From NCBI RefSeq assembly GCF_003334355.1, contig NZ_QOWP01000031.1: a DNA stretch of 41,182 bases. One strand, 5' to 3'. Within the stretch, counting starts at the first letter, position 1. Each line of letters begins with the position of its first letter. A program made the translations under genes and the position numbers. The notes beneath the pieces were generated by a model. It saw only the letters and a program-made list of their open reading frames with translations, made no database searches and was not told the origin of the DNA. Below are positions 30,116-33,518 of the stretch, piece after piece. This DNA comes from Escherichia coli (lineage in GTDB: Bacteria; Pseudomonadota; Gammaproteobacteria; Enterobacterales; Enterobacteriaceae).

Positions 30116-32420
<2,305 letters not shown>

Positions 32421-32624
32421 AAATTGATCTTAATTAAGCTTTTTTGATTATGTCCGAATTCGGACAAATGCTTTATAAAAAAGGGTTTTAGCTTCATATC
32501 CTTCAAGTAATGAGGGAGAAAACAAGGCTGATAACCTTATTTTCCCGCCCTCATTTCGAGGCAGCATTTTGTGCTCTGTTTAAAATTTGTGATCACTGTG
32601 TGATTTTCACAAAAGCCACACTAT

Positions 32625-33518
<894 letters not shown>

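Follow-up and report, generated by a model that had tools for sequence, protein, structure and literature searches.

Two palindromes between metF and katG of Escherichia coli lie in DNA with published FNR and YgaV binding and may not be recognized units in their own right

The described systems closest to the DNA considered here are FNR sites, the YgaV operator, the DeoR operators, and Rho-independent terminators. The FNR consensus is the dyad TTGAT-N4-ATCAA, and Myers et al. (2013) report TTAATTAAGATCAA as an FNR site in the vicinity of katG, under a ChIP-seq peak of FNR (PMC3688515 Tables S5 and S6) that was positive by MOSAiCS, NCIS, and CisGenome but negative in ChIP-chip (PMC3688515 Table S5). 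In the same study katG is classed as FNR-activated in anaerobic growth with nitrate and with nitrite (PMC3688515 Table 2) and is without FNR-dependent change in glucose minimal medium (PMC3688515). YgaV is an ArsR-family, SqrR/BigR-like protein with the operator type ATTC-N8-GAAT, an inverted repeat, for which DNase I footprinting with purified protein showed protection of the katG promoter from −113 to −157 relative to the katG start, at about 20 times more protein than was needed at the ygaV promoter and with no ATTC-N8-GAAT motif reported by the authors in the footprint (PMC9774250). Expression of katG is published as rising 1.8-fold in a ygaV mutant. The OxyR footprint on the promoter extends from −32 to −76 (PMC9774250). 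FNR and YgaV contacts upstream of katG are already published, and the two palindromes described below are no new kind of element.

The window analyzed here is a 41-kb stretch of E. coli DNA (41,182 nucleotides of contig NZ_QOWP01000031.1) that is 100% identical to E. coli K-12 genomes, such that the MG1655 coordinate equals 4166131 − window coordinate. An AT-rich spacer of 328 bp (32297-32624) separates the end of metF from the beginning of katG, and RefSeq carries no annotation inside it. The genes, the promoter elements, and the palindromes, P1 and P2, are placed as follows:

30116-32296, minus strand: katG coding sequence
32625-33515, minus strand: metF coding sequence, upstream of katG
32320-32355, minus strand: inferred katG core promoter, with the start at about 32320, the −10 TATCGT at 32327-32332, and the −35 TATAAC at 32350-32355
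32356-32392, minus strand: OxyR motif in the katG promoter, TAAGATCTCAACTATCGCATCCGTGGATTAATTCAAT, a consensus match
32416-32430, no strand: P1, AGATCAAATTGATCT, 15 bp as 7+1+7, about −96 to −110 relative to the inferred start of katG
32451-32466, no strand: P2, TGTCCGAATTCGGACA, a perfect 16-bp palindrome centered on an EcoRI site, about −131 to −146 relative to the inferred start of katG

The core promoter was inferred from the sequence and the published OxyR footprint coordinates. Centering the 45-bp OxyR footprint on the best OxyR-consensus match in the spacer (TAAGATCTCAACTATCGCATCCGTGGATTAATTCAAT, 14 of 20 specified positions) puts the katG start at about 32320 with an error of about ±4 bp, in agreement with the −10 and −35 elements, which are spaced by 17 bp. 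The consensus used for scoring reportedly goes back to Toledano 1994. No katG entry was found in the transcription-start tables of PMC3415461. The OxyR motif is conserved across Enterobacteriaceae, and its position agrees with the published footprint; P1 and P2 stand 24 and 59 bp upstream of it, and neither overlaps this motif of the ATAG-N7-CTAT-N7-ATAG-N7-CTAT type. The outer half of the OxyR motif contains a Dam site (GATC at 32386-32389) that is present in Escherichia only. OxyR binding is methylation-sensitive at agn43 and Mu mom.

A first-pass annotation of this DNA had described two perfect palindromes in the intergenic region. Both do lie inside the 328-bp spacer, and P2 agrees exactly with the description in its coordinates, length, and EcoRI center. 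For P1, a palindrome is present, but it had been placed at 32415-32427, 2 bases away from the true 13-bp core, GATCAAATTGATC, at 32417-32429 (6+1+6); "perfect" holds for its arms, which pair 6+6, but not for the center base, which cannot pair, and in K-12-type sequence the palindrome reaches 15 bp. Two Dam GATC sites (32417-32420 and 32426-32429) are contained in the P1 core. There is no window-wide excess of palindromes of this size: with arms of at least 7, 5 were observed against 6.4 ± 2.4 expected from first-order Markov resamples, and with arms of at least 8, 2 against 1.6 ± 1.2. Within the AT-rich spacer alone, a palindrome whose arms reach 8 or more has a probability of 0.016, and a pair with arms of 7 or more has p of about 0.002 under a simple composition model, both figures being uncorrected for the choice of this spacer after the fact.

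The structure of P1 becomes clear when it is read together with the two FNR-type dyads that flank it:

32424-32437, minus (katG-sense) strand: FNR site A, TTAATTAAGATCAA, TTAAT-TAAG-ATCAA, centered at about −110.5; a published site with a ChIP-seq peak and matrix rank 1
32409-32422, minus strand: FNR-like site B, TTGATCTACATCTC, TTGAT-CTAC-ATCTC, centered at about −95.5; 10.2 bits, overlapping the predicted CAP oligonucleotide TBS6

On the katG-sense strand these read TTAAT-TAAG-ATCAA, a single T, and TTGAT-CTAC-ATCTC, and P1 is the junction ATCAA-T-TTGAT, in which the upstream arm is the ATCAA half of site A and the downstream arm is the TTGAT half of site B. The two sites are separate dyads with centers 15 bp apart, and it is because their inner halves mirror each other that together they read as a palindrome. 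P1 is a by-product of two neighboring half-sites, and since its arms belong to two different FNR-type dyads, it is not itself supported as a recognized unit. In this it differs from the FNR consensus dyad, whereas site A is a 14-bp dyad of the consensus type whose K-12 form scores within the range of ChIP-backed sites; site A overlaps P1 by 7 bp, and its FNR score applies to site A and not to P1 as a dyad.

That score comes from a matrix trained on 62 other ChIP-backed FNR sites, with site A left out. The K-12 form of site A reaches 15.4 bits against the window background (14.6 bits against a uniform one), ranks first among all 14-mers in the 41-kb window, and outscores 24 of the 62 training sites, and the published FNR peak center (4131735 in old coordinates) converts to about 32419 in the window, within P1. 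Site B ranks eighth in the window and scores lower than every training site. The T at 32430 that distinguishes K-12 both lengthens P1 to 15 bp and lifts site A by about 3 bits, from 11.4 to 14.6; the majority E. coli allele, at 11.4 bits, compares with 11.8 for the weakest training site. The same T also creates a 10-bp palindrome, CTTAATTAAG, at 32429-32438. Site A is unusual among FNR sites in lying far upstream, its center at about −110.5 (from a start inferred to ±4 bp) being beyond the usual activator positions of about −41.5, or −61.5 and helical repeats. FNR action on katG is probably exerted through site A, which is bound in vivo according to the published ChIP-seq and which would contribute to the FNR-dependent rise of katG in anaerobic growth with nitrate or nitrite.

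Conservation had been proposed as a check on both palindromes, and for P1 it holds in Escherichia and part of Citrobacter but not beyond. Of 5426 complete E. coli genomes, 1690 carry a 32-mer with the 15-bp K-12 form and 3362 one with the majority allele (G at 32430, 13-bp form), placing the P1 core in at least 5052 of the 5426 (about 93%). P1 has a diversity of 0.024 and sits at the edge of an invariant block, and one natural allele lacks one of its GATC sites. The core GATCA[A/T]TTTGATC is common to Escherichia and the Citrobacter freundii group, and Salmonella keeps only TTGATCTACATCTC. Site A is not kept in related species, scoring 7.3 bits in E. albertii and 2.6 bits at the Citrobacter equivalent, and of the two sites it is only B, the sub-threshold one, that is conserved; its distance from katG stays the same across about 20 species of four genera (Escherichia, Salmonella, Citrobacter, and Pseudocitrobacter). 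Site B is the older site, occurring in Salmonella and Citrobacter as well, but it is a sub-threshold match without a known binder. Conservation beyond Escherichia is seen for site B and the P1 core but not for P2 or for the left half of site A.

P2 did not hold up to the same check: it does not occur outside Escherichia, and some lineages of E. coli no longer have it in symmetric form. An exact 32-mer around the perfect form is found in 3718 of the 5426 complete genomes, so that perfect P2 is present in at least 68%, and the 32-mer is missing from about a third. The following P2 alleles were recorded, of which those of ST131, NRG857C, strain 104, and E. albertii are degenerate:

AF14 (GTDB representative): TGTCCGAAATCGGACA
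ST131: TGTCCTAAATCGGACA
Strain 104: TATCCTAAATCGGACA
NRG857C: CTGCCGAAATCAGACA
E. albertii: TGTCCGTATTCGGATA

Six of the eight P2 pairs depart from pairing, by broken pairs only, and among the alleles of P1 and P2 we found no compensatory change, no pair being altered on both sides. In a spread sample, the mean pairwise difference was 0.064 in P2 and 0.061 in its flanks, against 0.000 in the 119 bp adjoining katG. Those 119 bp (32297-32415) are invariant in 11 sampled strains, and the distal part of the spacer (32431-32624) differs by about 6% on average, with identity down to 80-90% across the 5426 genomes. We infer that the perfect symmetry of P2 is an incidental, lineage-specific state and not that of a conserved operator or hairpin.

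The DNA that holds P2 is itself restricted in distribution. Among metF loci from 80 Enterobacteriaceae species, the spacer was measured where katG follows metF, and the E. coli spacer ends upstream in a segment with homology in Escherichia only:

E. coli metF-katG spacer: 328 bp
E. albertii metF-katG spacer: 340 bp
Salmonella and Citrobacter metF-katG spacer: about 164 bp
Enterobacter and Leclercia metF-katG spacer: about 144 bp
32431-32624, minus strand: Escherichia-only spacer segment of 194 bp holding P2, standing where relatives carry a metF terminator

In Salmonella, Citrobacter, Enterobacter, and others, a terminator composed of a GC hairpin and a T-run directly follows the metF stop; the scan likewise found a terminator-like site right after metF in C. 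portucalensis and none on the E. coli sense strand. In the 5426 genomes the median number of locations of the 194-bp segment is one; the segment has no phage matches and matches plasmid collections only in mislabelled chromosomes; a repeated or mobile element (REP, ERIC, or MITE) is ruled out by this single copy and by the lack of a phage or true plasmid match. The P2-bearing segment is a young, fast-evolving, Escherichia-only replacement of the ancestral metF terminator. Separately, PMC9239280 lists katG, with a value of 5.10, as strongly up when metJ is mutated in Salmonella, which would fit read-through from derepressed metF into katG.

The first-pass annotation had also noted that neither palindrome is followed by a T-tract and that they are not obvious terminators, and our scans bear this out: the sense strand has no T-tract after P1 or P2, and no terminator-like site was found on the minus (sense) strand of 32100-32800. 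On the plus strand P2 is weakly terminator-like with a poor tail, AATGCTTTAT, the only match in 32100-32800. Like a Rho-independent terminator, P2 lies downstream of metF and is able to fold into a stem of 6 bp, 4 of them G-C pairs, closed by a 4-base loop, but it differs in having no sense-strand U-tract, and the ancestral terminator of related genera has a different sequence and a different place, adjoining the metF stop. When the sense-strand RNA is folded by prediction, P1 and P2 each give a small hairpin, and the region folds better than shuffled sequences (z = −4.4), with its stability coming mainly from a longer structure:

32509-32555, minus strand: long stem-loop of −25.5 kcal/mol in the metF 3′ region, not followed by a U-tract

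Divergent alleles of E. coli retain this hairpin at −19 to −25 kcal/mol, and E. albertii does not keep it; it may protect the 3′ end of metF mRNA. A permissive Rfam scan of 32000-33000 returned no family, only a chance mir-14 match on the same hairpin.

Several further signals lie in and around the spacer. A 39-codon sense open reading frame (32448-32567, minus strand) that ends exactly at P2 and a 58-codon antisense frame (32510-32686, plus strand) that overlaps the metF 3′ end are each interrupted in several strains of E. coli, through frameshifts, stops, or the loss of a start, and both are unlikely to be genes. A weak RpoN holoenzyme gSELEX peak has been assigned to the metF/katG spacer (PMC8743547). 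A sigma-54-like −24/−12 motif, TGGCGCGAATATTGCC, lies inside metF (32745-32760, minus strand), about 130 bp from the gSELEX peak, and explains that peak better than sigma-54 at P1 or P2. LsrR shifts the katG promoter in gels, with a contact that was not localized; an AACAAT box was proposed between P1 and the OxyR site, and its mutation raised a reporter only before 4 h and not across the growth cycle. A cluster of TGTGA/TCACA-type repeats, TGTGATCACTGTGTGATTTTCACA (32588-32611), immediately follows the metF stop; these repeats look like CRP half-sites but are wrongly spaced, and in E. albertii they are altered in part.

The published YgaV footprint raises the question of whether P2 is a true dyad operator of a dimeric or oligomeric regulator, either YgaV or a DeoR-type repressor, that confers phylogroup-specific control of katG, a reading we regard as unlikely. 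On the inferred start, the footprint falls as follows:

32433-32477, minus strand: inferred YgaV footprint, to about ±4 bp, placed via the OxyR footprint and the OxyR 37-mer match

P2 lies inside this footprint, the only one mapped for YgaV on the katG promoter, with margins of 11 to 18 bp and no more than 3.5 bp from the center of its 45 bp on this inferred placement. The EcoRI core of P2 consists of GAAT and ATTC, and the best ATTC-N8-GAAT match in the footprint, AAGCATTTGTCCGAAT (AAGC-N8-GAAT), takes its GAAT from P2. That match is 6 of 8, equal to the best in the ygaV promoter, but the authors of the footprint saw no motif at katG, where the affinity is some 20 times lower; we found no dyad common to P2 and the AT-rich ygaV operator region, which has no counterpart of the GC-rich arms of P2. 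For a DeoR-type repressor, the likeness is to two palindromes upstream of deoC, TGTTAGAATTCTAACA and TGTTAGAATACTAACA, which we take to be the DeoR operators of the deo operon: P2 agrees with them in register at 12 of 16 positions (the 16-bp palindromes having the frame TGT-NN-GAATTC-NN-ACA) and differs from TGTTAGAATTCTAACA at four symmetric positions (TA to CC and TA to GG), but a binomial estimate puts the 12/16 matches to a 16-mer that a genome should contain in the hundreds. Against either repressor stand the arm-breaking alleles, which are common and uncompensated, and a conservation no higher than that of the flanks. A role in RNA, in which P2 and perhaps P1 would form stem-loops in the metF 3′ UTR or in metF-katG read-through transcripts that block 3′ exonucleases or aid termination now that the ancestral terminator is gone, strikes us as very improbable. 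It would be consistent with the presence of both hairpins in the predicted sense fold, with the loss of a terminator that C. portucalensis retains, and with a P2 hairpin of −8.6 kcal/mol in K-12 and −10.1 kcal/mol in E. albertii, but two natural alleles leave that hairpin with only −1.8 and −1.3 kcal/mol, the pairs show no compensatory changes, no sense-strand U-tract follows either stem, and most of the fold stability resides in the 32509-32555 hairpin. No Rfam family covers the region, and the 3′-end tables of PMC7815308, which may be incomplete, have no entry for the metF 3′ end or katG; metF is repressed in rich medium.

The opposite position, that both palindromes are pure chance in an AT-rich and weakly constrained spacer and that the FNR and YgaV contacts are without physiological consequence, also seems doubtful to us. 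Palindrome counts across the window equal expectation, P2 evolves like its flanks, YgaV binds weakly with an effect of 1.8-fold, and FNR has no effect on katG in glucose minimal medium, all of which speak for this position; it does not fit with site A being the top matrix match in 41 kb under a ChIP-seq peak, with the persistence of the P1 core in most E. coli genomes and in the C. freundii group, or with the fixed position of site B across four genera. The idea that P1 is a methylation-sensitive element, through SeqA on hemimethylated GATCs or through FNR shielding from Dam, and thereby exerts epigenetic or replication-linked control of katG, or that it is part of a CRP site, we find scarcely credible. 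The two GATCs of P1 are 9 bp apart and, with the third in the OxyR motif, fall within about 45 bp, and the GATC-N5-GATC pair is kept in Escherichia and several Citrobacter species, but one GATC is lost in a natural allele, GATCAA is common in FNR half-sites (many entries in PMC3688515 Table S6), and our literature search found no report from E. coli of Dam under-methylation near katG. As to CRP, a 30-mer over P1 and site B, TBS6, was picked as a predicted CAP site for gel-shift tests (PMC2654563), but its core matches poorly (TTTGA-N6-TCTCT against TGTGA-N6-TCACA), and the text of that paper gives no affinity for the TBS6 oligonucleotide.

We lean, with moderate confidence, toward a reading in which P1 and P2 are two distinct features, neither of them a functional unit by itself, P1 being the product of abutting FNR-type sites and P2 being incidental within a weak YgaV footprint. 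Weighing against this reading are the far-upstream center of site A, the unchanged katG level in glucose minimal medium, the negative ChIP-chip result, the score of the majority site A allele just below the weakest training site, the ±4-bp error of the katG start, the unusual occurrence of two such palindromes in a single 328-bp spacer, and the retention of perfect P2 by at least 68% of complete genomes. The suggestion of the first-pass annotation that the palindromes may be protein-binding sites thus survives in part, in that both overlap DNA with published binding, of FNR at one arm of P1 and of YgaV at P2, whereas the palindromes as recognized units are unsupported. For P2, this follows from the loss of its symmetry, its absence outside Escherichia, its evolution at the pace of the flanks, the lack of compensation, and the weakness of YgaV binding; YgaV binds weakly and mildly represses katG (1.8-fold), with P2 near the center of the footprint.

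What the two palindromes offer is of modest value. P1 is explained as two abutting FNR-type half-sites, and P2 marks the center of a footprint for which no motif had been reported. The segment that holds P2 raises the small question of where E. coli metF transcripts end and whether they read into katG. Finally, the lineage-specific states of P2 (perfect or broken) and of position 32430 (T or G) could tune katG control among E. coli phylogroups, a speculation to which we give little chance; if it were true, strains with the K-12 alleles would couple catalase to anaerobiosis through FNR and to sulfide through YgaV, and B2 or ST131-type strains would not.
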